A stretch of DNA of 64,000 nucleotides. Origin: Kondoa subrosea. Lineage: Eukaryota. Below, piece by piece: positions 1,204-22,479 of this stretch; the first letter of the stretch is position 1; each line of letters begins with the position of its first letter. Below the pieces are notes generated by a model. The model ran no database searches and was not told the origin of the DNA. It was given only the letters and a program-made list of their open reading frames with translations. The translations under genes were made by a program, and so were the position numbers. The DNA lies in assembly GCA_039545335.1 (NCBI GenBank), contig BCIN01000003.1, forward strand, positions 124,001-188,000, written 5' to 3'.

Positions 1204-4200
1204 TAAACTGATCTGTTTCGCATGTATAACAGCCCAAAACTATTGAAGACCCGATTTGTAGACGATCAATCTACCAGATCTTCTCACCGACTAAAAGGCC
1301 CAGATGAGCTCATATGAAGACAAGCCATACATAGCGACTTACTCCTGGTTCCGATTCCTCGTGGTTTACCTGCGATTGAGGCTTCGTAGGCTTGAGTATA
1401 AGCTTCTATTGCTTCGAGACCCTTTTTCAGGAAAAATGAACATGAGCGAACGTGAGTAGCTACTGAAAATCAATTTGGCCTTACACTAGTCAGATCGACT
1501 TCATGGCCGCGCTGGAACTTGGTCCGCTTGATGAGCTTCCAACCGGCGGCGAGAATAATGACAATGAAGATCATGCCGTAGCTGCAAGAATATTAGCAAC
1601 CTCTGAAAAGGTCGAGTTCAGGCTTACGAGAAGATAAATTGATCCGCGGCAAACGCTCCAGGCAAGAAGACGTAATATCCCGAAATACTGAAAGCAGAAG
1701 TGAATAAGACTTGTAAATTGAGTTCACAGATTTGGCTTACAGAAGAACAAGAATGGACATGATTAAGGCATACCAAGCGGCGAAAGGTTGCAGTTTTGAC
1801 TTGTATGGCAAAAATTCATCTCTAGATAAACCTTGCTTCTTCATGGCGTTGTTGAAGCGCAACCAGGTACTTAGAAACAAGATTCAGCTTGACCCAGGTA
1901 ATCTTTCGAAAGGGCTTACGAAGACATGATCTGTGCACGCAAAGTCAGCATATGAGTTGTGAAGAACAAGATGGACGGACGATCCAGTTGAGCAGCTGTG
2001 AAGCCGTAACAACTATAGTAGTCAACCATTGTAAGCATGAGCGAAAAGATTGCGACAGGAGAATCTTGACATACGCGATACCCACCATCCTAATACTTTT
2101 GCAGTTCCAGCAGACACTGCAACCAATTATCAGTCCTCATGAAAAATGCCAAAAGAATGAACTGCACTCACCGGACAGATATGCCAGAAGCGAAAGACCG
2201 TTCGCGCTGCACGAACATCAGCTTGATCGCCAAAACTACCGCCCAAAACCTACACAAGTACGCAGAGGTACGGATTACCGCTACATAGACGGTTAGTCGA
2301 GAACAGAGAGATCCAGAGGTTACCACTTACTTTCTGTTGAGTTTGGTCAGAATACGAGGTGCTTGACCTTTTAGAGCCAAAGCATAGAGCGAACGTGACG
2401 TCCCAAAGATATAAGCGTTGCCTGTGGAGGTGTTCAGCATCGTCGTTGACGAGAAGTAGCATTGACTGACCAGCTGAGAAAATCGAAGTTGCGATAAGTG
2501 CATTGACAATGTCGGGCAGGACTGTAATCTATAGCAAGCAAGATCGGCGATTGAACGGGCATTAGACTGAGTTGCAACTGACTCCCACTGTGGAGAGATG
2601 TATAAGTAAAGTCTAATGTGATTTATGAGTCCGGACCTACTTCTCCTCATGGCAATGACATATGGCGAGCGAGTAGCACTAGGACCGAGAGCTCCGACTA
2701 GCAGAAGAACATCAGTATCCAAAGCCTTGAAACCTTGCAGTAGACTTACCGAGCCTTTGTGGGAAGATCAGCAATCGACCTAATCGCGCAAGAAACGCAG
2801 TGCTTACTGAGGTGAGTCGTAAGGCACGACTATTCCGATACATAGAGCTCCTCCGATAAAGAAGAAGCCCAGCCGGTAGATAATGCTGATGAACGCGCGT
2901 CTGCAAAACCGGCGGGTGTCAAAATTGTTTTGGGCAATATCCGGGTAGCTTTGACTTACGGCATAGTCTTTCGAGGGTTGACAGCTTCTCCAGCGACCAT
3001 AGAGATGTATTCAGGTCTGTCACAATGATGAGCTGAAACCTCAATCGTAGATGCTGCACATACCCGGCAATGATGAAAGCCGCTGCGAAGAACCTTTAAT
3101 ACATGATCGCGACATTGCGCGAAGGATAAAGCACCTCCAATGACACATTGTACGAAGCCTTCAAATCGACCTAGAGGTCCATCGTGACGATATTGAGCGA
3201 AAACTCCAGGCTGTAAAAAGAGGCTTTCAGCTTATGATTTGGGTGGAGTGAATGAACGAACATCCTTCCAGTATCGGAAACCATATCGATCGCCTTGAGG
3301 ATTTCCACCAAGCATAGTGACCAATGTGAAACCCATCATACCGAAAATCAAGATAACTTTCCCTAAAGCGAACCTTTACAATTGCATTAGCGCTATACTC
3401 AAACTCAGGCTCAAAAGGTGAATTCACCAGAACTCTGCTTCGCCAAACCAAGCAACAGACCAAATGTTGAGGACGAAGTAGACAAAGCACAAGCAACTGA
3501 TGAGAATTGCTGGGTTGAGATCATCTTTCCAGAAGCCAATGACAACGTTGAAAATATTGATTTCGAAGCAGATCAAAGCAGCTTGACTCTGTGAAGACAA
3601 TTATGAGCTAAACACAGTCACTGTGCATACCCGATCATTGTACTCACAATGAAATAGTTGTAACCTGTTGCCATTCCATATGCTTCATCAACGAAGCGAC
3701 CAGCGAAACGAATGAAAGATCCATCGATGGGGCTGTATCAAAGTATATCAATATTTGCTGTCTCTTCGCGACGACGTGGATCTTACTGTAAAGTAACCAT
3801 TTCGATTTGACATTGTGCAGTAGCGAAGATGACAGATGCCCAAACGATGAAACCTAGATTTACGCACGGTAAGTTTGTGCATAGGGAAGCCATTCTGTCG
3901 GGAAGAACACACCCAGCAGTAAACCGAGCGGCCCACCAGCTCGAAGAGAAGAACCAATAGCTACGAAGAGAGCAGCTCCAACAGTGCCTTTACCAATTCG
4001 ATGAGATGAGTTTCCCGACTCCAACGAGGATCCCTTACCTGCAATACTCAACAATTGGATTTGTCTGCTTGTCAAACGACGATGATTTGTCATCTCGTTG
4101 ACCGAATGCACATCCGCATCTGCGTATTCATTGACTGTATGACTTCTGCATGAGCTTTCTGGGGTTTGCAATTAAATGATAAGTTTAAATTGAACAACAC

Positions 4201-4286
4201 ATACCTTTATCAGAAGAATCATCTCGTTTCCACCATCTGTTTGGTGCTTTCTCATCCACCACAGGATCAGCAGGTTGACGATCCAT
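1204..4286 (-). CDS. Amino-acid permease (APC/YAT family), many introns; 3' end approximate
   Basis: ATG at 4286. Exon fragments read 'RRLTSRQIQLLSIAG', 'GTVGAALFVAIGSSLRAGGPLGLLLG', 'DGSFIRFAGRFVDEAYGMATGYNYF', 'RSPYVIAM' and 'YKSKLQPFAAWYAL', typical of YAT permeases. Confidence 0.88.
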
Positions 4287-5548
4287 GAACTTATGTGATT
4301 GGACGGGAATCAGAAAAGGAGGAAAAGGGAAACAAAGAGGCCCAGAATGTCCGCTCTTGCGTGCGATTGAATCAGCATTTGTAAGGTTGCCAAGCCTTTA
4401 CAAGAGAAGCTCCGAAATTGCGTTTGTTTTGCCCTGGATAGTAAAGACGGGTATCGTGAAATCAAGCTTGCCATCTTGTGAGGAGCTCCATATGTGCTAC
4501 AGTCCTGTCCAGCCTCTCTTTCGAACGCATGTTCCTCCCGGGTAGTATCGGAGATGACGAGCAAGGGCAATGATCGTGTGGATTCCAAGCCTTTTTTCTC
4601 TTGTGTGCGCAAACTTGCAAGACACGCATGACAATGGGTGGAACGATAGCAAGCAAGAGAACAGGGGAAACAAGAGCGACAGCAGGGGAAAGAGCAGTGA
4701 AAGCAGGAAATCAAGCTTTCTAGGCTCGCAGAAAAAGCTTCAAAGATGGATGCTGTTCACTCTTCACGAACTGTGACTTCTCCACTGTTCTTGCTCTATA
4801 TGCTTGATTGTCTGCTCCCGTGAACTTGGCCGTTTAGGTTTACACTTTACAAAGCATTCAAAATCTAAGGCCACTCAAGTGCTAAAGGGCTACTCGATAT
4901 GCAATGTTCGATTGTCATCGTTCTACAAGTCTATTCCAAAGCTTATTAAGACACTTTGCAAGCTTCCCTACGTTTAAGGCCTTTGGTACTTCTACGCAAG
5001 TATCATCTGTATCTTTGGATCTCTCTCGGCGAAGGTACATGAGCGCTTTCCTTCCGTCTGGGCACCTGCGTTTCTCATCAATCTCTCGTGTTTGATTACT
5101 TCCCCGCTGATCGTACTCGATTTGAGGTCACTGTATTGTGGAAAACTGCTCCGTACAATTCTTCTGCTCGGTCGTTCTCCTTTCCAATTACTATTTGTGT
5201 CTGGCTATTGCCTTGCAGTACAAAAAGTCTAGTTTTGAAGTCTCAATACTTGCTGTATCCAGATTACGCCTGTTCACATTCTGCTCGAGATCAATCAGTA
5301 GGTCTGACAGATTAAGAAACCTGATAGTTCACAAGTCCTCGTTAGTAAAAGAAGCTGTAGCTGCTTAACGGAATCCATGATGTCGTACAACCATAAGGTG
5401 AAGCTGTCTAAGTCGATCAAAGTATTAACGCTTTCACCTGCACGAGCTGAGGTTCGTGAAGTCGAGTCGCTCGAAATGCAACCTTGAGAGTTTGTTACCA
5501 GAAGGCGGAGTTGATGAAGTCACCCATCTTTTGACCTTTGTCCATGAC

Positions 5549-6833
5549 ATGGCCTCGCTCTTTTCAGCATTAGGTGGACCCTCAGCGACTGTAGATATCC
5601 AGCTGAGCGCAGAAGATGAAAGGAAGCACGTTGAAGTGAAATTGAGCGACAGCACGTCTGGTAAAGAGGATGCGAGCGGTCGTAAAGATAGCGTACCTAT
5701 TTATTATGACGGTGAATCTGTTAAAGGGACAGCTGTAGTCAGGTGTGTTGGGAGCCTCACAGGGACACAGAGTGAAGGACAGAGCTAAATGAGTGGTCAT
5801 GTGTTGATCTAGGGTTCCTGGAGGGAAGGCGCTCAAGCATGATGGTAAGCTTCATGACAACTTACTTGGCTACATTTACTAAGTGATTATGATCAGGTAT
5901 CAAGATAGAATTCGTTGGATCTATCGGTCAGTGCATTACAGCTTCACAAGTCCGATACTCAAGCTGGCGTAAACACAGAGCTCTTCTACGACCGAGGCAA
6001 TCACTATGAATTCTTATCTCTAGTACAAGAGCTAGCGGCACCAGGCGAATTGAGGGCAGCTCAAACTTTCGACTTCGAGTTCAAGAACGTTGAGAAACAA
6101 TACGAATCTTATCATGGGATAAACGTCAAGCTAAGGTTCGCTCGAGGCAATGCTATGTACAGTAGATGCTGAGTATCTCATTTCACTTGTCGAACAGGTA
6201 CTACATTCGCATTACAATTTCAAGACGGATAGCGGATGTAGTCAAGGAGAAAGATCTCTGGGTTCATTCTTACCGAATGCCGCCGGATTCAAACAACTCA
6301 ATCAAGATGGAAGTCGGTATAGAAGATTGTTTGCATATCGAGTTCGAATACAACAAGTCAAAGTGAGCATCTTTGCCGCTCGTGCTGTGTATAAGCTTAG
6401 CCACATGGTTGCCTCACAGATATCATCTGAAGGACGTGATAGTAGGAAAGATCTACTTTCTGCTGGTCAGGATAAAGATCAAACATATGGAGCTATCAAT
6501 CATTCGAAGGGAAACAACTGGTTCAGGTTAGCCTTTTCTTCAATCCCGTGTATCGTCTTTCCTTTGGGCTGAATCGTTCTTTCATCAGCACCAAATCAAT
6601 ACAACGAATCGGAAACCATTACCAAATTCGAAATAATGGACGGCGCACCAGTCAGAGGCGAAACGATACCTATTCGACTCTTCTTGGGTGGTTTCGAACT
6701 TACACCTACTTTCAGAGATGTCAACAAGAAATTCAGCACGAGATATTACCTCAATCTAGTCTTGATCGATGAAGAGAGTAGAAGGTATTTCAAGCAGCAA
6801 GAGATTACGATATTTAGAAATCCTCAAGATTAG
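5549..6833 (+). CDS. VPS26: Retromer subunit Vps26
   Basis: Exons encode 'PIYYDGESVKG', 'ELFYDRGNHYEFLSLVQELAAPGEL', 'NNSIKMEVGIEDCLHIEFEYNKSK' and 'MDGAPVRGETIPIRLFL...YFKQQEIT'. Confidence 0.97.
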
Positions 6834-6982
6834 AGAGAAGATAAATGTCTTTTTTGGTAGTCAGGGTGGCATTACGACGATGAGGACGATTTGTGCATAT
6901 AAAGAATGAATGTCATTTTTGCCCCTGAACGAATGAAGAATACAATATACCGAAGAATCCTCGAGCCTTAGATCTATTCTGC

Positions 6983-7819
6983 CTATTTGGCCCATCGCAA
7001 GTCGATGCACTTTCCTTGCCAGCAACCTTCGCCCAATCCAGAGCTGAGAAAGAGAATCAGCTAAATCAGCCTCCAACCCCTTGTGCAGAGACAAATGAGT
7101 GACTCACCAAACGTTTCCACATGCACCACAAGCTTCAATGGAAGTAGCTAGATCTTGACAAACGTAATCATGCATCCTGATATCCATCTTGCTCAATTCC
7201 CCATTTCCTTTCAGAGGACAAGCCGTCTCTTCTTTTCCCTCGCAAAGACCAGAAGTGACAGCTAAAGATCGTTTGTATCTAGGAACTTGAGAAGGGTTTG
7301 TGGGGTTATTAGGAACGCATTGACCCGAAGAAGTTTTGGTGTAGTTTGGTTCGCAAGTATATCCGCAACCGGTACCGAATTTGGGTGGCGCTCCACCTGA
7401 ATTGCACTTTGGAACAGCGTGACCAAGGACAGTGAGACAGATCTGGATATCTGCTAGACCGCCGAGCTAAACACAAACGAATGGATGAGTTTCACACCGC
7501 GAAAGGGCAAGAGAGTAAAGCTTACCGCGACATTAGCTTGGACTTGGATGAGTGGTATATTCTGTGGATTGTTGCCAACTGCTACGTCCAAGCAGACATC
7601 GCCTAGTAAAGTTTTGGCATAAACGATAGTTGAAGCGATTCTGTTTCGCAAAAGTCAGACATGTCATGGTGAAAATCAAAGAAGAAGAAGAACTCACGCT
7701 CGACCGTTCAATTGTCGCTCTGCAATCTTCTCTGTCGGTGTCATCTGAATAGGAGTAGATGTAGCCATCCGAGCGAGAGTGAAGGCGGTCAAGAGAATTG
7801 GGAAGAAGTTATTGAACAT
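6983..7819 (-). CDS. Secreted Cys-rich CPL1/PriA-like protein, left copy (4 exons)
   Basis: Signal-peptide-like start MFNNFFPILLTAFTLARMATS. Spliced product ends '...RYKRSLAVTSGLCEGKEETACPLKG...YVCQDLATSIEACGACGNVCSGLGEGCWQGKCIDLRWAK*', matching the LC....ACP...C.D....E.CG.C pattern of basidiomycete PriA/CPL1 domains. Confidence 0.8.
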
Positions 7820-8096
7820 GCTTTCTGTCTCTGAATCAGCACACGTAGTAGAATCAGTGACTCGGAGATTTACTTGTAATGTAAAGAGAGGATGCAAAGG
7901 ATTGAAGATGAAAACGCGAATGGAGAGAAACAGCAAAAGCAGAGCATTTTTATAGCTGATGAGATAGGAGTCTCTTTGCATCTTGCATAGAGTATTTAGC
8001 ATACACGCACATACTCGATATTGTCTAATTGGGCACGAACGGGACACAAGATGATTCACTTTCCCGATCGGGCGAAAATCAAGGGGAAGGCAAAAG
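6983..8096. repeat. Outer left arm of inverted duplication (pairs with 18122-19237)
   Basis: Reverse complement aligns by eye to 18122-19237 across promoter, 5' leader, exons and introns, with scattered substitutions and small indels (roughly 85-90% identity, estimated). Confidence 0.95.
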
Positions 8097-8250
8097 CCAA
8101 GCAGAGAAGTGAAGACAGATTGAGGAAGTGTGCATCAAGTGAAAGTTACATCTCGAAGAAGATCAGACGAACGGAGTCGAATTTCACAGACCAAGCAACT
8201 GAAAAAACGAAAGAAAGATGCAAAAAAGCCAACAGTATTGCACGATAATA

Positions 8251-9092
8251 CTAGAAGCCGGTCTGACGCTGTGCATTGAAGTGTCGGAAGGCCGCGTGGT
8301 CTATCATAAAGCTCTTAGGACATCCAAACCACTCAGGAGGAAGTTCACTCACGATCAGGCAGCTTGGCCGAGCTCGCAGCCTTCTGTAAGCCTTTGTAGT
8401 AATGAGTGCCCGAGAGAGGACCCCATTGACTTCCGCCGCCGAGCATGACCTTCATGTCATCACCACGGGCTGTGCAATGCTGAAATTGGCATATGTCTTA
8501 ATATAAGCAGGTCGAAGACTCACCTAAATGGTTCACACGATGAGCTCCATTCTAGATCGACATCAGGCGAGCCTCAAGTGTATCCTGGAATTATGACCTT
8601 ACGGGAGGTTCTAGCATCTTAAGCAAGCGCACAACATAAGGTCCGCCGCTACGATTGTCGCAGAGTTTTACCAAAATGCCCTCAACCAGTGCGTATTTGA
8701 GAGCAATAGCATAGGCGTTGACCGCTACAAGATGGCTAAGAGGCTGTGAAAGAGCGTGTCAGCTTTCTTCTTCGACTGGTGCAAATCAGATCAATCTACG
8801 AGCCTGAGGCATTCTTGATCATGATAAAAGTCTTGCGCAGCGATCCGAAACTTCTCGAAAAGCTCGTTGTCGCCTTCTGCGGTTGCGCGTTCTGCGAGCC
8901 AGCGCAACGAAGTAACGAGTGATTCCTGCTCAGCAGCTGGATTGGCCGAGTTCGCATGGCTTGCCATATGATCCTTCAAAGTTTGAGCAGGGTCAGAGCC
9001 GATCAGAGTATCTGAGGTAATGCAACGTCAGATTGTTCGCAAAGTATCTACTTCCAGAACCTACTCTTGGCTGCCATGAACAAAGATGACAT
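8251..9092 (-). CDS. Hypothetical ~190 aa protein unique to the left arm (6 exons)
   Basis: ATG 9092 and five ~50 nt GT-AG introns give one continuous frame: MSSLFMAAKNTLIGSDPAQTLKDHMASH...SLRWLAERATAEGDNELFEKF...LPLSHLVAVNAYAIALKYALVEGILVKLCD...HFNAQRQTGF*. No family recognised. Confidence 0.65.
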
Positions 9093-9347
9093 GATGATGG
9101 TGATGATAGCTATATATCTGTGAACGAAACTGGGGAATACTGGCCAGCAGAAAGAGGAGGAAAGCAACGTAACGCAAATCCGTTTCGCTCGTGTTCCCGA
9201 AGAGGACAAAGGGTAAAAGGAAATTGGAAAAGCAAGAGCTAGGCAGCGAGTATGACCACTGCCAGAAATCAGGGCTCAAAAGCCCTTTGCGACAATAGGC
9301 GTTACAGCTACACTCGATTGACAATTTTGAGAAGCTTGCGGATTTAA

Positions 9348-10620
9348 ACATTTTTCTTCCTTGATCTTGTTCTTCATCTGCCAAAAGTAGCCCAACTATT
9401 GGAATTATCGTCAGTCTCTTATACTGCCAGATGAGGTAGATTCACCTATCATGCTGCTCATCTCTCTTGACTTTCCCAAAGACATCTTCACTCCATTCAG
9501 TTCCATGCGCATCGCTCATAGTAACAACGGAGAAGGCATCGCTTGAAGTACCCGAACTACTCCTTCTAGATCGATGAGACATCTCGGATGATCCGCCAGC
9601 ACCAGATTGCTCTTCCTCATCATCATCTGAATCGATTTCTCTTTCATAAGTTGAATGCAAAGGAAAAGCCATTTTCAATTCTGAGCGAGTTCTCAAACCA
9701 AGATTGATATCGTCCTGATCGAAGACATCGCTTTGCAGTTTTCTACCAGGCGTTGGGCAAAGGGTAAGTTCAGAAGCAGTAGACTGACGAAAAGAGTTGG
9801 TATTGCGGTTCGAAAGAAGTGGACAGCTATTTGTTTGACGCAGAGAAGGTTTTCTAACAGGTGAAGGAGCGTAAGAAAAGCTGTCTAGATCTTCGTCAAA
9901 GAGGTAAATGTCGTCCAATCGAGCATCATGAATTGGCGAAGGGCTTCTTGATGGTTGTTCGTGCGTAACTGGCAAAGATGGTGCTTGACTGAGACTGCGG
10001 CCTGATTTCTTGCGAAAAGATAATCGACGGGCGACAAAACTTGATTTCTTGGGTGGTGAGCTTGAGCTTGAAGTAGTTGAGGTGGATTGAGCAGAAGAAG
10101 ACCGGCTGCGATAGCTTGGTGGTGCAGAGGAAGAGGAGCGTTTGGAGAAAGAAGGTGGAGAAGAAGCAGGTCTGTTGCGGTAGTTAGTCCAAGTATATTC
10201 AGCTCAGCAGGCTTGCAACTCACGCAAAGAGATCTTCTTCCAAGTCTAAATGAATGTCCAAGGTGTTGGCCGATAACGAGACTGTACGAATGCGCTCTTC
10301 GCCTCTGGTGTAGCAAACAGACTTCCTGTTCTTGCTCAGCCTTAGGCTTCTCATTAAACGAATGAAGTAGTTTAAAGTGAAGGGCATGTGGTTCGACAAA
10401 TGAGCGTGTAGGTGGAAATGCAAAGTTGGTAGTACGTGGTCAAGACTCAACGAGGCAAAGAGTAAATAGCCAGCGCAAGGCAGAATGAGTCCGATTAAGC
10501 TTGATCTTCTTGTGACAATTCTTGTGATGAGCAAGTGCCTCTTGTGGCTTTTCTTTTGCCCATCAACACATCGATATGACGACGGGCGGAGAAGCAGAAG
10601 GCAGGTTCGAAAGGTCGTGC
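9348..10620. repeat. Inner left arm of inverted duplication (pairs with 15645-16920); 9760-10584 appears identical to 15681-16505
   Basis: Paired coordinates sum to 26265 from 9442 to 10620, so there are no indels. The ORF track shows identical peptides in three frames (9885-10316/15949-16380, 10087-10365/15900-16178, and the C-terminal part of 10220-10732/15515-16045). Confidence 0.97.
9374..10387 (-). CDS. Ser/Pro-rich low-complexity hypothetical protein, left copy (3 exons)
   Basis: ATG 10387 (MPFTLNYFIRLMRSL..DLEEDLFA), intron 10223-10172, long exon (PASSPPSFSKRSS..LPVTHEQ..EQHD), second intron, last exon SWATFGR*. The same structure is conserved in the right copy. Confidence 0.75.
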
Positions 10621-11066
10621 CCCGGTGAAAGACATTTCCGGAGCCTTCTGGATATATTAGGACAGCTTGTCGAGAAGACTGGTAAGCATCCAGTAGCAGT
10701 TCCGAATCAAGACCTGGAGCGCGATATAGCAAGGAAGGGCTGAACCGAGATCTGATGATTTTTTGTGTAAGCGGGAAAGTCTTCCATGTACAAGTTGTGA
10801 ATCAGGGAAAGCATAGAGGAGATCGCAAGAGCGACGAGATAGCAGCAAGCATTGAAAAATGACACGCTGACCCGACAAATCTGTTCTATTAGCGAGTCGC
10901 GTTGTATCGCATGCACACTGCTCTGAGCATGCTGCGTCTCTGTCTGATGCTCAAGTCTGTCGCTCGACAGCCGTGTATCGCAAGTCTCAGCAAATAATAA
11001 CGCGGTTCGTCTTCAACCATACTTTATAGTATTTAGCCTTTGTCTTGGTCTCGCCTCTTTGCAACA

Positions 11067-12212
11067 ATGCAATGGCCTACAGAGGACACAGGTTTCCTGC
11101 GAAGTGTAGCTGTCATCCTGGTCTCTGAGATAGGTCAGCTCTTGCCTTCATCATTGAGATTCGCGTCTCATATTGTTCCAAGGTGACAAGACTTTCCTCC
11201 TAGCAGGTAAGGAGCTACTCAGATGCATTGATCTATATCTTATGCCTTTGAACAGCTATTCTGGCCATGAGGCATCCTCGTTCTATGGTCTTTGCGGCAG
11301 CTCTCAGCGCTTTAGCCATCATGTCCATTTTATCTGCTATGCTAGGTCATGTAGTACCCACACTCTTACCAAAGAAATGGACGACAATATCAGCTGCAGT
11401 TCTGTTCCTAGTCTTTGGAGCTAAGATGTTGCAAGAGGGTTTAGCGATGGAAAGTGGTTCTGGCGCTATCGAGGAAGAATTGAGGGAAGTCCAGAAAGAG
11501 ATAGAGGATGCAGAATATGCAGAGGGAGGGAATCCAAAGAGACTGCTGACAGGTGCAAGAAGAGCAGAGGCTAATGGGATAGAAAATATGGAAGAAGGAA
11601 CAGCATCTCCTGCAACGTCAAAGAAGCACAAGAATTCCGGCAACAAGATGTCGGACAGCGTCATGAATTTGGCTACCCTAATCTTCTCACCTATCTTTGT
11701 TCAAACTTTCATAATGACTTTCCTTGCCGAATGGGGTGACAGAAGTCAGATCACGACGATTGCGCTTGGAGCAGCTCATGTAGGTCATTAATCATAGTTA
11801 CAGGACTCGAAGATCTCATGCAGTGCCACAGAATGTGTGGATCGTTTCGGTCGGCACAATCATTGGTCATTCAGCATGTACCTTTGGCGCTGTGATGGGC
11901 GGAAGAGCGATCGCGAACCGAATCAGTATCAAGAACGGTACGTCCTCGTCCTGCTACAGATCTCTCGAGGCTCATCATCCCTTCGTAGTAACGCTCGGCG
12001 GAGCTGTCCTTTTCTTAATCTTTGCACTCGTCTATGGATACGAAGCAGTACGTAGCCCGCTTTCATGCCTTGATGACTGTCCCTGACTGTTATGTACTAA
12101 TCTATAGTATACCGATGTACCAATACCGGATATTGTGGGAAGCAAGATGCCAACTCTAGAGGAGATGGGAGCAGGGTGGAATCCAGGAGAAGGCATAAAC
12201 GGAGGGCATTAG
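11067..12212 (+). CDS. GDT1: GDT1/TMEM165 (UPF0016) Ca2+/Mn2+ antiporter
   Basis: Two signature motifs after splicing, 'VSEIGDKTF' and 'FLAEWGDRSQITT', with an acidic central loop. Confidence 0.95.
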
Positions 12213-12303
12213 AGTAGCCGCATAGCATACGCATATACAAAACAACGCATTGGTCATTGTCATTGCAAACATAATATACAAAGCATGCTCTATAAGCGAC
12301 ACT

Positions 12304-15229
<2,926 letters not shown>

Positions 15230-15644
15230 TTCGAGAATCTGGCTGTTTGTCGCAAACCAAGTCTTTTGCAAGAGCTGCCCTGCCGCCTCACAGAGTGGCC
15301 TGTAGCGTCATCTGAGAACAGCTACACACAGGATCTCTCTTTTGCTCGCCTTTCTCTATCTCGCTTCCGGCGGAAGTTCGCAAAGGCGATGCATGTCAAA
15401 TCTTTCGTTGCTTCTTCTGGCTAGAGTCGACGCTCTCTCTCTCTCTGTGTTGCTCAGCGATACGGAGAGCACTTCCAGTCTGCTGCGGTCAGCCAAGACA
15501 AATGAAGCAATGCAATGCCTTGGCTGATTCAACTTGCTATACATATTCATGCTCTTCTTCCCAAGCTGTTAAAGCTGCTACAAACACGGCGAGGTCATTG
15601 GGAAGCCTGCAGAAGAGCAACTTCTCGAACGACTTATGTCAGCA

Positions 15645-16920
15645 GCACGGCTTTTCGAACCTGCCTTCTGCTTCTCCGCTCGTCGTCATATCGATGTGTT
15701 GATGGGCAAAAGAAAAGCCACAAGAGGCACTTGCTCATCACAAGAATTGTCACAAGAAGATCAAGCTTAATCGGACTCATTCTGCCTTGCGCTGGCTATT
15801 TACTCTTTGCCTCGTTGAGTCTTGACCACGTACTACCAACTTTGCATTTCCACCTACACGCTCATTTGTCGAACCACATGCCCTTCACTTTAAACTACTT
15901 CATTCGTTTAATGAGAAGCCTAAGGCTGAGCAAGAACAGGAAGTCTGTTTGCTACACCAGAGGCGAAGAGCGCATTCGTACAGTCTCGTTATCGGCCAAC
16001 ACCTTGGACATTCATTTAGACTTGGAAGAAGATCTCTTTGCGTGAGTTGCAAGCCTGCTGAGCTGAATATACTTGGACTAACTACCGCAACAGACCTGCT
16101 TCTTCTCCACCTTCTTTCTCCAAACGCTCCTCTTCCTCTGCACCACCAAGCTATCGCAGCCGGTCTTCTTCTGCTCAATCCACCTCAACTACTTCAAGCT
16201 CAAGCTCACCACCCAAGAAATCAAGTTTTGTCGCCCGTCGATTATCTTTTCGCAAGAAATCAGGCCGCAGTCTCAGTCAAGCACCATCTTTGCCAGTTAC
16301 GCACGAACAACCATCAAGAAGCCCTTCGCCAATTCATGATGCTCGATTGGACGACATTTACCTCTTTGACGAAGATCTAGACAGCTTTTCTTACGCTCCT
16401 TCACCTGTTAGAAAACCTTCTCTGCGTCAAACAAATAGCTGTCCACTTCTTTCGAACCGCAATACCAACTCTTTTCGTCAGTCTACTGCTTCTGAACTTA
16501 CCCTTCGACCAACTCATGACAGAAGATTGCAAAGCAATGTCTTTGACCAAGATGATATCGATCTCGGATTAAGGACTCGCTCAGAATTGAGAATGGCTTT
16601 CCCTTTGCATTCAACTTATGAAAGAGAAATCGATTCAGATGATGAGGAGGAAGAGGAATCCGGTGCTAGCGGATCATGCGAGACGTCACATCGATCTAGA
16701 AGGAGTAGTTCGGGTACTTCAAGCGATGCGTTTTCCGTTGTTACTATGAGTGATGCGCATCAGAATGGTTGGAGTGAAGATGTCTTCGGTAAAGTAAGAA
16801 GAGATGAGCAGCATGATAGGTGAATCCAACTTTATCTTGAGGTATATCAGATTGACGATAATTTCCAATAGTTGGGCCACTTTTGGCAGATGAAAGGACA
16901 ATATCAAGGCAGAAAAATGT
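15645..16920. repeat. Inner right arm of inverted duplication
   Basis: Reverse complement of 9348-10620. No mismatch seen over 15681-16505, then about 40 mismatches in the next ~315 bp (hand count). Confidence 0.97.
15878..16893 (+). CDS. Ser/Pro-rich low-complexity hypothetical protein, right copy (3 exons)
   Basis: Exons 15878-16041, 16094-16819 and 16872-16893. Paralog of 9374-10387; many substitutions in the diverged part are synonymous and the frame is intact. Confidence 0.75.
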
Positions 16921-17189
16921 AAAACCAAAAACTCTTTCATTTCATTGGATATAGCTTCACCATCTGCTACGATTGCGGCAATTCTGGGGGACATGCAAGT
17001 TGTACGTAATGACTGATCTAATACTTGCTTCAAGGCTCTCTATATGAGACGCCTTTCTTCCCTTTCTTCTATTTCGAAACGCGATTCTGTTTTTCGTATC
17101 TTCCTCTTCCGTTAACGACGTATTCTGCGCATCTATCACGTCTTATATTTCTCTTGCCCTCAATCAAATCATTACTATATTTCGTCATT

Positions 17190-17881
17190 ATGTCTTCAGT
17201 TCCCAATCCAGATTTCCTAAGCAGAGGCAGCTGCGTAAGTTGCTGATTATTTGGCCTGACTTTTGTGTCTGCTGATTCGCTTGAACAGTTGCAATGTGTT
17301 AACGTATGCTATTCACTCATATCTATATTTCATCTTTCGAAACTGAAAGCCCGGTTAGGCCAAACAATCGTGCCATGGAGGCAATGTTGGGCAGCGGCAA
17401 CACTGTAGTTAGTCGTCTTGGCCAATTTGTCTTCGAATCTGATGGCAATACCTTACAGGCGTTTGCCCGCCGGCTCAGGGATGCAGCTTTGGCCTTGGGC
17501 ACACTTATGGAACGTTTATTCACGTAACTCTGATTACTTTCTATCGATTCTCTCATTTACGCTCATGGCTTTAGAACATCCAACCAAAGGCATCAGTACA
17601 GCACAGCATATGTATCCCCCTTCTCAAGCCGTGAGTAAAGCTTCTCGTTGTCTGGACCGGAAATACAGCTGATATTTTCACGTAGCCTCCTCTCGGTCCT
17701 CCTCCTCGACCCTTCACTGTTGGTTCGCCTTCAACCCCCATTGCGCCACAGTCCGAGGCCGAGAAACAACAACAAGCCGCATGTCGAAGAGGATATGATA
17801 ATTATGCTGCCTTACATGGTACCCATGGCGAGATGGGCGACCCTAATCATCGGGTCTAGTCGGTTCAGCAATGGCTTGTAA
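17190..17881 (+). CDS. Small Zn(II)2Cys6-motif protein unique to the right arm; 3' exon structure uncertain
   Basis: Exons 17190-17234, 17289-17303, 17359-17407 and 17459-... (introns 54, 55, 51 nt) splice to MSSVPNPDFLSRGSCLQCVNAKQSCHGGNVGQRQHCSVCPPAQGCSF = C-x2-C-x6-C-x10-C-x2-C-x5-C. A downstream Pro-rich exon lies near 17686-17860. Confidence 0.65.
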
Positions 17882-18264
17882 GTCTACATCGAGAATTGGG
17901 TCAGACTAATCTGACTTCTGTTCAGCTGTAGCTCTATTCTCGCTGCTCACCTTTTTTGCTGTTCTTGTATTTCGCTTTTTTCTTCTTTCGTGACATTATT
18001 CTGTCTGCTTTTAAACCTTCCCGAATCGTCCCATCATTGCATAGGCCATTACAGCCTTCAAAGCATAGCCTGCACCAGAAGTGGAGTTTCAGTTCTTTGC
18101 TGTGCCTATCTCGGTACTGTACTTTTGCCTTTCCCTTGAGTTTCGCCCGATCGGGGAAGTGAATCATGTCGTGCCCCGAACTCGTGCCTAATCAAATGAT
18201 ATCGAGTATGTGCGTGTGTACTGAATGCTCTATGCAACATGCAAAGAGACTCCTATCTCATCAG

Positions 18265-18271
18265 TATAAAA
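18265..18271 (+). promoter_or_regulatory. Putative TATA box of the right CPL1-like gene (counterpart near 7947-7954 on the minus strand)
   Basis: TATAAAA ~130 bp upstream of ATG 18400, retained in both paralogous promoters. Confidence 0.45.
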
Positions 18272-18399
18272 TGCTCTGCTTTTGCTGTTTGCTCTCCATT
18301 CTCATTCTTATCTTCAATCCTTTTCATCCTCTCTTTGCATTACAAGTAAGTTCCCGAGTCACTGTTTCTACTACGTATGCTGATTGAAAGACAGAAAGC

Positions 18400-19237
18400 A
18401 TGTTCAGCAGCTTCTTCCCAATTCTCTTGACCGCCTTCACTATCGCTCGAATGGCTACATCTTCTCCCATTCAGATAACACCAACAGAGAAGATCGCAGA
18501 GAGACAATTGAATGGTCGAGCGTGAGTTCTTCTTCTTTGAATATCACCATGACATGACTTACTTTCTCGAAACAGTATCGCTTCAACTATCGTCTATGCC
18601 AAAACCTTGCTAGGCGATGTCTGCTTGGACGTAGCAGTTGGTAACAATCCACAGAACATTCCACTCATCCAAGCTCAGGCTAATGTCGCGGTAAGCTTTA
18701 CTCTCTGCTACAAGTAGACTGGAACTCATTCATTCCTTCGCGTTTAGCTCGGCGGTCTAGCAGAGATTCAGATTTGTCTCACTGTTCTTGGTCACGCTGT
18801 TCCAACATGCAACTCAGGCGGAAGACCATTCAGATTCGGTACCGGTTGCGGATATATTTGCGAACCAAACTATACCAAAACTTCTTCTGGCACTTGTGTT
18901 CCTAACAATCCATCAAACCCTTCTCAAGTCCCTAGGTCCAAACGAGCTTTGGCTGTCACTTCTGGTCTTTGCGAATCAAAAGAAGAAACTGCTTGTCCTT
19001 TGAAAGGAAATGGGGAATTGAGCAAGATGGATATCTTAGGGCATGACTACGTTTGCCAAGATTTAGCTACTTCTATTGAAGCTTGTGGTGCATGTGGAAA
19101 TGTTTGGTGAGTTACTTCATTTGTCTCTGCACATGGGGTTGGAGGCTGATTTATTGTTCTCTCTGATGTTCAGCTCTGGATTGGGACAAGGTTGCTGGCA
19201 AGGACGATGCATTGAATTGGAGTGGTTGAAAAAGTAG
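18400..19237 (+). CDS. Secreted Cys-rich CPL1/PriA-like protein, right copy (4 exons)
   Basis: MFSSFFPILLTAFTIARMATSS.. ends '...RSKRALAVTSGLCESKEETACPLKG...YVCQDLATSIEACGACGNVCSGLGQGCWQGRCIELEWLKK*'. Cysteines and intron positions are conserved with the left copy. Confidence 0.8.
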
Positions 19238-19553
19238 ACTTTGGATCTGAGTACTTAGATTTGTTGTACCGTATTTCACAATCGGTTTATTGTGGCTTTG
19301 GGGCTTTATGTTATTGCATTGTGATCATTCTTTCCTTTTCTTCTTCACCATTCGTGCACTCGTGAGCCGAACAATTGAAAGGAAAGCGAAGTAGCGATAG
19401 CGTTCATAAGTAAAAGACGAAAAGAACACAAACAGAGAGAGAGAAGGGCTAATAGAAAGGAAAGCACTGATCCAACATTGGCAGTACTTTGCTGTATCAA
19501 ACAACATGATGGTATTTTCTAGGTCCAATTATACAACAAAAGTGATCCCTAGA

Positions 19554-20349
19554 TCATATGAAGGAAGTCTGTCATGTCTTTTTGTCAGCACAGATTAACA
19601 CCTGAACGAACAATAAAACACTGACCAAGAACTGTTCTGCTACTATTCTGCTCCTTGCATTCAAAGATAGCTTCATTTCACTAATCTCCTTATCCACGTC
19701 TTCCATGAATCTGTGCATGTTAGAAGCTACTTCAGCTAGAAGTCAAGCAAAAGAAAAGTCCGGCCGCACTGAATGACGAAATCCACCAGTTTATGTTTCA
19801 TCATCTCTTCTGCATTCTTGTGAGTAATTAAGAAAGAAATATCATAACCTTTGATTGGTTTCCTTCTCAGTATAACAAAGTTCTCCGCTCTCATCATCAT
19901 GAATCTTGTAAATTTGTTTGCTAAAATATGTTCAATTTCATCTGCTTGTTTGATTTTGATTGAAAGTCGACATGAGTTTATAGAGGATTCGATCAAGACT
20001 TGTTCGGAGGCGTTTCTTGAAATGGTTAAGGGTGTTAAGAGTGCTTCAGGTGTCTTTCTGTCAAATCCCATAGACAACTAAGCTCGTAGAGGGGCCCAAT
20101 CAAGTACTATGCTTACCCAGTTTCGACTTCTGGTGCATTGTGTCGTTCGACGTTCTGTGAATGGAGAGCGATCAACTTATGTCACAGCGACAATTATCAA
20201 GCAGCCCACTCACCTGAGATGCAAAGTTCTCTACAGTCAGAGCAGCTGTAAGCGTTGCTCGGACGCAATTCAAGTAAGGTCGAAGGGTGTTGGACTAATT
20301 CAAATAAATCAGCGAAACTCATTCACACTCAGATGAGAGACTGTACCAT
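19554..20349 (-). CDS. ARC19: Arp2/3 complex 20 kDa subunit (ARPC4)
   Basis: 'SNTLRPYL', 'ERHNAPEVE', '[59 protein letters not shown]' and '[18 protein letters not shown]'. Confidence 0.97.
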
Positions 20350-20502
20350 GACTATAAATCCTGTCAACTCGTCGTCAGAGAGGTCAGAAGCAACAGATAC
20401 ATCGGATATTTCGGATTCGATCACGTGACATTCGCGTCTCCCAGCACAGGTTTTTTCCTACTCGTTTCTTCTCCTTTCCACGACCTTAAAACACGCGCAA
20501 AG

Positions 20503-22479
20503 ATGTCAGCTGTTACACCATTAGGACTTTTCTCTCAAGTACTCTTACCTGGAGAAAACTTTGAGCTGGAAACTATTGCTAGCGATATTCAACTTACTGG
20601 CATTTCTTTCGGTGAATCCGTTAAAGGAGAAGGTCGATCAAGTGTTAAATTACTTTACTTTGATCGATCTCATTCAAATTTTGGTTTAACTCCTGATTTT
20701 GATTCCGATGATGAAGAGGATGATGAAGACATGGATGAGAGTATGATGACGATGGATGGTGAAGAAGCTGCAGAAACGGATGATGAAGATGATTCTGGTG
20801 CTGTTGATGAACAAGCTCTGAAAGCTGCAATGAAGCAAGCTGCTGAAAAGAGAAAAGAACAAGTCGCTACTGCTACTGTACCTGGTGTTTCTCCTAGGAA
20901 ACTGGCTCAGCAAGATGATGTGCCTACTGCTGAGGGAGATGAAGAAGACAGTGAGGAGGATGACATGATGTCGGATGTGTCTGAGGATGAGATGAAGGAA
21001 GTTTTCTTGGGCAATCTCTTGCCTGGCAAAGTGCGTGCCCTTCATTGTTTTGGCCTGATGAATGCTCAGCATTGTATCGGAACGTACAGATCGAGCAAGC
21101 ACCTATCAACTTTGTTCTCAAATACATGGACACTTTCCAATTTTCAGTCACTGGTGAAAAGTAAGCATTCAACGCGTGTGTATATCTGTCTTCGATATTC
21201 ACATGTTTCTGTGGCTTACAGCCCCGTCTACATAACTGGTCAATACTGCCACATCTCACCACCCGACATGGGAAGCGATTCAGACTCGGATTCCGATTAC
21301 GCCGGAGGAGAATATGATGATTCAGAAGATGAGGACTTGTCAGACGAAGAAGGTGGTGTGTACCATCCTGAATTGGGTTTACCTATGCCTTTTAATTATG
21401 AGACTCAAGTTTCCGATGGTGAACGATTCCAAGAAATCGTTGCTGCTTCTACTGCTGAAGTTCCTTCGTGAGTCTTACTTCCATCATGTGATTAAAGTCG
21501 TTGTGATTTATTTTTGCGGGAATGAATCACAGAAAGAAGAGCAAGAAAGCTGCTGCGGCCACTAAAGCTCACACTGTTTCCGCTGATGCTCAAATGGATG
21601 ACCTATCCATGGATGTCGATGATTCAGCAAAGAAACCTGCTGCCGCTGCTGTTAACGCTGGAGATGTTTCTACTGAAGGTCTATCAAAGGTGTATATTTA
21701 TCGCGGTACTTTTCAGACTTGTTCTGATTCCTTGTTCGACATTACGCACAGAACCAAAAGAAGAAGCTCAAGAAAGCTCAACAGCAAGCAGCTAAATCAG
21801 GCGATGCTCCCGCTGCTGCTGCTCCAACTGCTGCTGCACCAACCCCAGCTGCTTCTATTACTCCAGCTGCTTCTACTAGCGCAAAGAAACCAAGCAAGAA
21901 GACTACATTACCTTCTGGTTTGATTTACGAAGATGTTAAAGCAGGTGCAGGTGCAGCTGCTAAAAAAGGACAGAAAGTCTCAATGAGGTATATCGGTAAA
22001 CTCCAGAACGGTAGCATTTTCGATTCAAAGTCAGTCTTTCCGTCTCTCACAAATACGTCAATGGGAATGAGGGCTGAAAAAGGTCGATGTTGACAGCACT
22101 AAAGGCAAACCATTTGAATTTAAATTGGGTGCTGGTCAAGTCATTAAAGGTAATGTAATGTAATGTAATGGTGCAGGAGATAAAACTAATACAAGTTTCG
22201 CTGCAAAGGTTGGGATGAAGGCGTACGTCTACCAATCATGTCATCCTTAGCTTTGTGCTAATCTGGATATTTGGTGGGGTGTACAGATCGCTGGGATGCA
22301 ACCTGGTGGAGAACGTCGTTTGACCATTCCAGCTAAACTCGCTTACGGCAAGAATGGAACGGATGGAATTCCAGGCAATGGTACGTGATCGACGGCTATA
22401 AGCTAGCTTTAGCTTACAAGTTGCATCATTTCGTACAGCTACTTTGGTCTTTGAAGTCAAATTGCTTTCCATCAAGTAG
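20503..22479 (+). CDS. FPR4: Nucleolar FK506-binding protein (nucleoplasmin-like domain, acidic tracts, C-terminal FKBP PPIase)
   Basis: Acidic N-terminal region. C-terminal exons encode '[37 protein letters not shown]', '[19 protein letters not shown]', '[19 protein letters not shown]' and '[12 protein letters not shown]'. Confidence 0.93.

Follow-up and report, generated by a model that had tools for sequence, protein, structure and literature searches.

A probable single gene-conversion tract of 825 nt in an old inverted duplication around GDT1 and CEF1 in Kondoa subrosea

The 64,000-nt stretch of Kondoa subrosea DNA analyzed here (assembly GCA_039545335.1, contig BCIN01000003.1, positions 124,001 to 188,000; referred to as the window, its first nucleotide being position 1) contains an inverted segmental duplication, the two arms of which enclose the genes GDT1 and CEF1 and share a mismatch-free core of 825 nt inside otherwise diverged sequence. 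The gene order at the locus is VPS26 (plus strand, PF03643), left arm, GDT1 (plus strand, PF01169), CEF1 (minus strand, PF11831 plus Myb), right arm and ARPC4 (minus strand, PF05856). Outward from the spacer between them, each arm consists of a gene termed A, a middle of approximately 1.2 kb and a gene termed B. The gene copies are designated A-L and B-L in the left arm and A-R and B-R in the right arm, the middles X (left) and Y (right). The coordinates of all features are compiled in Table 1.

Table 1. Features of the inverted duplication and its spacer (positions in the window)
Feature	Position	Strand	Details
Left arm of the inverted segmental duplication (gene B-L, middle X, gene A-L)	6983-10620	-	self-blastn, windowed identity; outer limit is the B-L stop codon
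Right arm of the inverted segmental duplication (gene A-R, middle Y, gene B-R)	15645-19237	+	repeat search, self-blastn, alignment; B-R stop codon 19235-19237
Perfect core, left copy (probable conversion tract)	9760-10584	-	0/825 mismatches; single 825-nt unitig in run X1
Perfect core, right copy	15681-16505	+	exact reverse complement of 9760-10584
Gene A-R, Ser-rich orphan, 286 codons (predicted)	15911-16823	+	exon 1 15911-16041, intron 16042-16093, exon 2 16094-16823 including stop
Gene A-L, paralogue of A-R (predicted)	9442-10354	-	open reading frame 9442-10203; coordinates mirrored from A-R (x+y=26265)
Gene B-R, Cys-rich, hydrophobic N-terminus (predicted)	18400-19237	+	four inferred exons: 18400-18521, 18576-18690, 18748-19106, 19174-19237
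Gene B-L, paralogue of B-R (predicted)	6983-7819	-	read from sequence; exon 3 open reading frame 7104-7466
Middle X, left arm	8097-9347	-	unrelated to Y
Middle Y, right arm	16921-18121	+	unrelated to X
Unique spacer, 5,024 nt	10621-15644		holds GDT1 and CEF1, convergent; each divergent from one A copy
GDT1	Pfam-supported exons within ~11267-12086	+	PF01169, E=6e-20
CEF1	12531 to ~15035	-	PF11831 Myb_Cef E=1e-60 plus Myb domains; N-terminal exon recognized by eye

Self-blastn of the whole window returned two blocks, 9348-10620 versus 16920-15645 (95.5%) and 7013-8096 versus 19204-18122 (87.2%), and no third copy of the arm sequence. A repeat search placed the core inside an inverted pair of 1187 nt (9434-10620 / 15645-16831) with 96% complementarity and 5024 nt between the arms, and found more inverted pairs as far out as 7002 / 19215. 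Including the unalignable middle, each arm measures about 3.6 kb; the original prediction for this locus had recognized the inverted duplication but understated its size. The inner limits of homology (10620 / 15645) lie approximately 270 nt upstream of the ATG of gene A, and the outer limits (6983 / 19237) coincide with the stop codon of gene B, beyond which homology is lost. The duplicated unit is cut precisely at both ends, the sequence downstream of B having either never been duplicated or been lost since. No tRNA genes were found at the arm ends within positions 4000-22000, and no look-alike stretches were present among the other genomes scanned.

The longest perfect inverted run, determined by comparing the window with its own reverse complement position by position, is exactly 825 nt long and pairs 9760-10584 with 15681-16505, the same coordinates for which freedom from mismatches had been predicted and an exact alignment proposed as a check. 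Read on the right copy, the core comprises the 230 nt that precede the ATG at 15911 (or 197 nt, should translation start at the in-frame ATG at 15878), exon 1, the 52-nt intron and the first 412 nt of exon 2, so that the predicted inclusion of about 200 bp of upstream non-coding DNA and of a whole intron holds. The intron, the upstream DNA and all third codon positions are identical between the two copies. Since the core extends over all of these, constraint at the protein level cannot explain the identity. At the transition from the identical to the diverged part of the reading frame, the translations read ELTL-CPTPG and ELTL-RPTHD (the hyphen marking the transition), as had been noted from the sequence.

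Global alignment gave no mismatch in the 825 nt of the core, 54 mismatches in 412 nt (13.1%) of the adjoining outer flank (9348-9759) and 135 in 1077 nt (12.5%) of the distal homologous block (7013-8096). In the inner tail (10585-10620) three of 36 positions differ, and past 10620, where 55 of 94 positions differ, homology ends. Altogether, the alignable arm sequence outside the core amounts to 1,489 nt with a divergence of 12.5-13.1%, which fits the identity of roughly 87% estimated in the original prediction. The log10 probability of 825 identical sites by chance is -48 at p = 0.125 and -48 to -50 at the flank rates, and even a constrained rate of p = 0.07 gives -26; a chance origin of the identity is excluded. 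For the divergence of the core, the 95% upper bound is 0.0036, i.e. less than about 3% of the divergence of the flanks. The paralogous copies thus combine diverged flanking homology with a contiguous tract that is far less diverged, as is typical of gene conversion.

Outside the core, divergence forms a single stratum, as seen from the similar values of the two blocks. All 29 of the 50-nt windows placed there contain at least two mismatches, and the longest perfect runs (44, 41 and 35 nt) are as expected for approximately 1,500 sites at 13%. At its outer edge, the core ends in a step and not in a gradient, with 18 mismatches in the adjoining 69 nt. A signature of GC-biased conversion was not detected in the core, where neither the GC content (0.463) nor the GC content at third codon positions (GC3, 0.33) is above that of the neighbouring parts. 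The single stratum, the sharp edge and the lack of a GC or GC3 rise point to one event rather than to continual homogenization with variable end points. The original prediction of an old duplication with recent or recurrent homogenization is upheld for the old and the recent component by the contrast of 0/825 with 12.5-13.1%, whereas the recurrent one is unsupported and mildly contradicted by the same three observations.

The predicted product of gene A is Ser-rich and partly acidic. The intron of A-R, as read from the sequence, has GT..AG borders and a ctaac branch-like motif, and the stop codon is located at 16821-16823. The first 181 codons of A-L and A-R are identical, and 16 of the last 105 residues differ when counted on the translations, which corresponds to 16 of 286 for the entire protein; at the nucleotide level, the last 315 nt of the gene contain 41 differences. 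For the 105 diverged codons, the rates of synonymous (dS) and nonsynonymous (dN) substitution are 0.49 and 0.074 (dN/dS 0.15), with a proportion of synonymous differences (pS) of 0.36 per site. No Pfam family was found for gene A, and no relatives were obtained in a word-index protein search at 133-424 amino acids. In an exhaustive HMMER search, the only match at E<=0.001 was a low-complexity protein of 1374 amino acids (P0001), which was judged spurious. A metagenome scan matched 592 pattern stretches, none of which was confirmed, and the best Atlas score of 0.87 counts as a lead only. The stretch 9691-9759, which lies beside the outer edge of the core within gene A, carries mismatches at about twice the arm average; 11 of these 18 mismatches affect third codon positions along the conserved peptide QS(D/N)VFDQDDI(N/D)LGLRTRSEL.

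Gene B encodes a predicted product that looks like a small secreted Cys-rich protein, and B-R and B-L have the Cys pattern and the frame in common. For exon 3, dS is 0.42 and dN 0.076 (dN/dS 0.18); the introns of gene B differ between the copies at 13-28%. The nearest Atlas clusters are CPL1-like proteins of basidiomycetes (PF21671) with scores of 0.89, 0.87 and 0.81, which are below the lead threshold of 0.9 and are to be taken as a lead only. Exon 3 alone (120 amino acids) had no Pfam match even at E<=1, so that the gathering score of PF21671 was not reached. No relatives of gene B were found among proteins of 211-2000 amino acids, and a search of the PDB returned only chance-level rows (E 0.25-0.42). 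Both copies of A and of B have retained the reading frame, the position of the stop codon and the splice signals, and purifying selection is seen on both gene pairs. The duplication is old and both copies of A and B look maintained, because coding dS is 0.42-0.49, dN/dS 0.15-0.18 and the noncoding parts of the arms differ at 12-28%.

The identity of the core was also followed in sequencing reads. Two runs (X1 and X2) of one sample from one study, probably the source of the assembly, were available as Logan contigs (k=31), which are built from the reads independently of the assembly. They were compared over positions 8800-15640, a range that includes one copy of the core and ends before the outer flank of the right arm. 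In X1, the core is represented by a single uninterrupted unitig with a length of exactly 825 nt, which breaks exactly at 9760 and 10584. Its word depth is 263.2, compared to 137.8 for the left-flank contig and 141.6 for the spacer contig. This ratio of approximately 1.9 argues for exactly two copies and not for a multi-copy element. In X2, the core is present in two contigs with depths of 96.6 and 109.3, compared to 52-68 in the flanks, and the only break (10339-10368) has adaptor-like loose ends. The strings at the X2 contig ends at 10339 and 12699 are presumably Nextera-type transposase or mate-pair adaptor sequence; if so, a mate-pair library exists. Variants inside the core were detected in neither run. 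The sole difference listed (G>A at 10585) comes from the contig that represents the other copy and is the known first mismatch beyond the core. Had the copies carried fixed differences, the 825-nt unitig would have been split, so the identity was not created by the assembler. The check for read-level variants suggested in the original prediction, carried out here on read-derived contigs of one sample, therefore revealed no collapsed single-nucleotide polymorphisms. The spacer is a single unitig of 5156 nt, both ends of which enter the core. The contig graph is thus the same for either orientation of the spacer, and contigs with k=31 cannot span the core.

These observations are probably best explained by a single recent ectopic gene-conversion tract on the old inverted A-middle-B duplication. 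The old inverted segmental duplication has placed A-middle-B on both sides of GDT1 and CEF1, between VPS26 and ARPC4, and both copies of A and B have apparently been retained as working genes. According to this scheme, a DNA break may have occurred recently in the 5' part of one A copy, and the inverted paralogue, located either on the same chromosome or on the sister chromatid, may have served as the template for its repair by homologous recombination. Conversion would have overwritten the stretch bounded by the mismatches at 9759 and 10585, comprising the proximal promoter, the 5' untranslated region, exon 1, the intron and 137 codons of exon 2. The outcome would be A proteins identical over 181 of 286 residues, presumably with no further functional consequence. 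The 825-nt island would now be a substrate for further exchange, including rare crossovers that flip the spacer, as a by-product and not as a device.

Two other explanations concern the identity itself. Extreme purifying selection might have prevented either copy of the 825 nt from changing after the duplication, and the tract does include the N-terminal 181 codons and the proximal promoter. It also contains the 52-nt intron and all synonymous sites, though, and with a pS of 0.36 just outside the core and introns of gene B that differ at 13-28%, the probability of this explanation is close to nil. That truly different copies were made identical during assembly or polishing is conceivable in so far as consensus polishing is known to be misled by paralogous repeats and the two runs are probably the assembly's own data. 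The uninterrupted 825-nt unitig in X1, at 1.9 times the depth of the flanks and made without the assembly, speaks against such an artefact, which is considered very improbable.

The remaining alternatives concern what the identity does. As had been predicted, a crossover within the core would invert the GDT1-CEF1 segment, and the two A copies would thereby trade their distal upstream regions. Repeated non-allelic recombination might keep the island identical without any regulation, with both orientations of GDT1-CEF1 present among cells or isolates. The geometry, inverted arms with two gene pairs around a short unique segment, fits such a flip/flop locus, and an identity of 825 nt is ample for homologous recombination. 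Furthermore, the read graph is symmetric and leaves the assembled orientation unconfirmed. A precedent is the FF locus on chromosome XIV of Saccharomyces (Salzberg et al. 2022, PMC9731477), but there, as reported, the whole 4-kb repeat is homogenized, whereas at the present locus only 825 of about 3,600 nt are identical. Neither an edge gradient nor tracts of intermediate age nor a GC rise were seen, and flip/flop recombination is regarded as unlikely. The inversion might also act as a programmed switch, exchanging the upstream context (GDT1 side versus CEF1 side) so that one A variant is expressed. Geometry alone fits this proposal, together with the precedent of position-dependent expression after inversion at the mating-type (MAT) loci of Ogataea polymorpha (PMC4238957). 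It is countered by the 230-270 nt upstream of the ATG of gene A that are already shared, which makes the proximal promoter identical in both copies, and by A proteins that differ at only 16 of 286 residues. No recombinase is encoded in or beside the spacer, which is filled by GDT1 and CEF1 and leaves no room for one, and which is neighboured by VPS26 and ARPC4; a silencing landmark was likewise not seen. A programmed switch is therefore held to be highly improbable.

Several points weigh against a single conversion event on a simple duplication. The reads represent one sample only (two runs, probably the source of the assembly), and an outgroup is needed to set the direction of conversion. Heteroduplex rejection, i.e. 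anti-recombination by mismatch repair, in flanks diverged by 13% could confine later events to the same limits, so that the sharp edges are no strict proof of a single event. The density of mismatches in the remaining arm sequence shows mild overdispersion (chi-square, P=0.026), which presumably reflects the mix of coding and intron sequence. The models of genes A and B are predictions, built from open reading frames, splice signals and conservation between the paralogues. Finally, the unrelated 1.2-kb middles are not explained by simple duplication and divergence. In global alignment, X and Y have approximately 40% identity. No match between them was obtained with blastn (word size 7) or tblastx except at the edges, and Smith-Waterman comparison of their open reading frames (14 x 19) gave a best z of 2.4. 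Neither middle contains a Pfam family at the curated cut-off. One middle may have been swapped out once the arms had been duplicated; alternatively, the A and B blocks may themselves represent earlier conversion patches within a duplication that is older still. The former is favoured because the A and B blocks are equally diverged. Both X and Y contain intron-like GT..AG pieces and a chain of open reading frames that is opened by an ATG and reads MSS... (ATG at 9092-9090 on the minus strand and 17190-17192 on the plus strand, respectively).

The CEF1 exon has its best matches in proteins of Microbotryomycetes (50-56% identity), with none closer in the protein database searched. The source of the window is therefore a Pucciniomycotina-like basidiomycete that has no close relative there. 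A protein model of Rhodosporidiobolus ruineniae (P0020, 1157 amino acids) contains CEF1 domains at residues 8-659 and GDT1 at 1064-1137. This model probably merges two same-strand neighbours into a single annotation. CEF1 and GDT1 may thus have been adjacent for a long time, with a relative orientation differing from the convergent one in the window, which is a stray hint that the segment may be inverted relative to the ancestral order. Just past ARPC4, an open reading frame of 322 codons (20503-21471, plus strand) with acidic runs (D/E/S) has no Pfam match.

The combination of features found here resembles several known systems in part. The mechanism proposed here is the one argued for the Saccharomyces chromosome XIV FF locus, where conversion in non-allelic recombination homogenizes the inverted repeats and the minority of events that are resolved as crossovers inverts the segment, according to Salzberg et al. 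(PMC9731477). The shared layout is a short unique segment with genes on it, placed between inverted repeats that consist of two pairs of fast-evolving genes restricted to their lineage. The FF repeat of 4.2 kb is described as near-identical as a whole and homogenized in every species, with both orientations documented. In the window, inverted repeats flanking a unique segment are present, but the repeat is not near-identical as a whole: the arm sequence outside the 825-nt core is diverged by 12.5-13.1% and the middle 1.2 kb is unrelated. The spacer is also smaller, with 5 kb and two genes compared to 24 kb and 15 genes. In Ogataea (Hansenula) polymorpha, mating-type switching proceeds by starvation-induced inversion between two MAT loci with position-dependent expression, according to Maekawa and Kaneko (2014, PMC4238957). 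Inversion between the inverted repeats changes which locus has which chromosomal context there and would do so here; the genes of the present locus are a pair encoding orphan Ser-rich proteins and not MAT.

For the origin of the arms, staggered breaks are plausible. In this model, inverted duplications arise at the breakpoints of inversions (Ranz et al. 2007, PMC1885836). Correspondingly, non-repetitive gene-bearing DNA is duplicated in inverted orientation at both ends of the segment, in two copies only. The model covers the origin of the arms and not the perfect core. Arm-to-arm conversion is also known from the palindromes of the human Y chromosome, where it keeps paralogues identical over long periods and the arms are more than 99.9% identical throughout. 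Intrachromosomal conversion between inverted copies would be common to both cases, but a single short tract within otherwise diverged arms is found here. Among the matches listed for basidiomycete literature on inverted repeats, gene conversion and inversion, no such locus was recognized from titles and the beginnings of abstracts. None of the matches listed for inverted duplications and inversions names Microbotryomycetes, and the Saccharomyces study (PMC9731477) was the only fungal case among the closest literature matches.

The locus is a clean yet ordinary example of paralogues exchanging sequence, a new instance of a known phenomenon. By itself it does not change the general understanding, and its value would rise only if an orientation polymorphism or a genome-wide excess of such cassettes were shown. 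It is rather unlikely that the island turns GDT1-CEF1 into a cassette that flips naturally, with cells or isolates differing in its orientation, and that is one of a set of such small cassettes in this Pucciniomycotina genome. If this were the case, small inversions would occur at an unusual rate in the lineage, leaving inverted duplications behind and later making use of them again. With a single event as the probable origin, the core would represent a textbook-clean natural conversion tract, both end points of which are defined to the base, in a fungal lineage for which the protein database searched contains no close sequenced relative. Exchange of sequence would then still be possible between homeologous arms that differ by 13%, and the new 825-nt island should permit occasional inversion of the two housekeeping genes between them.

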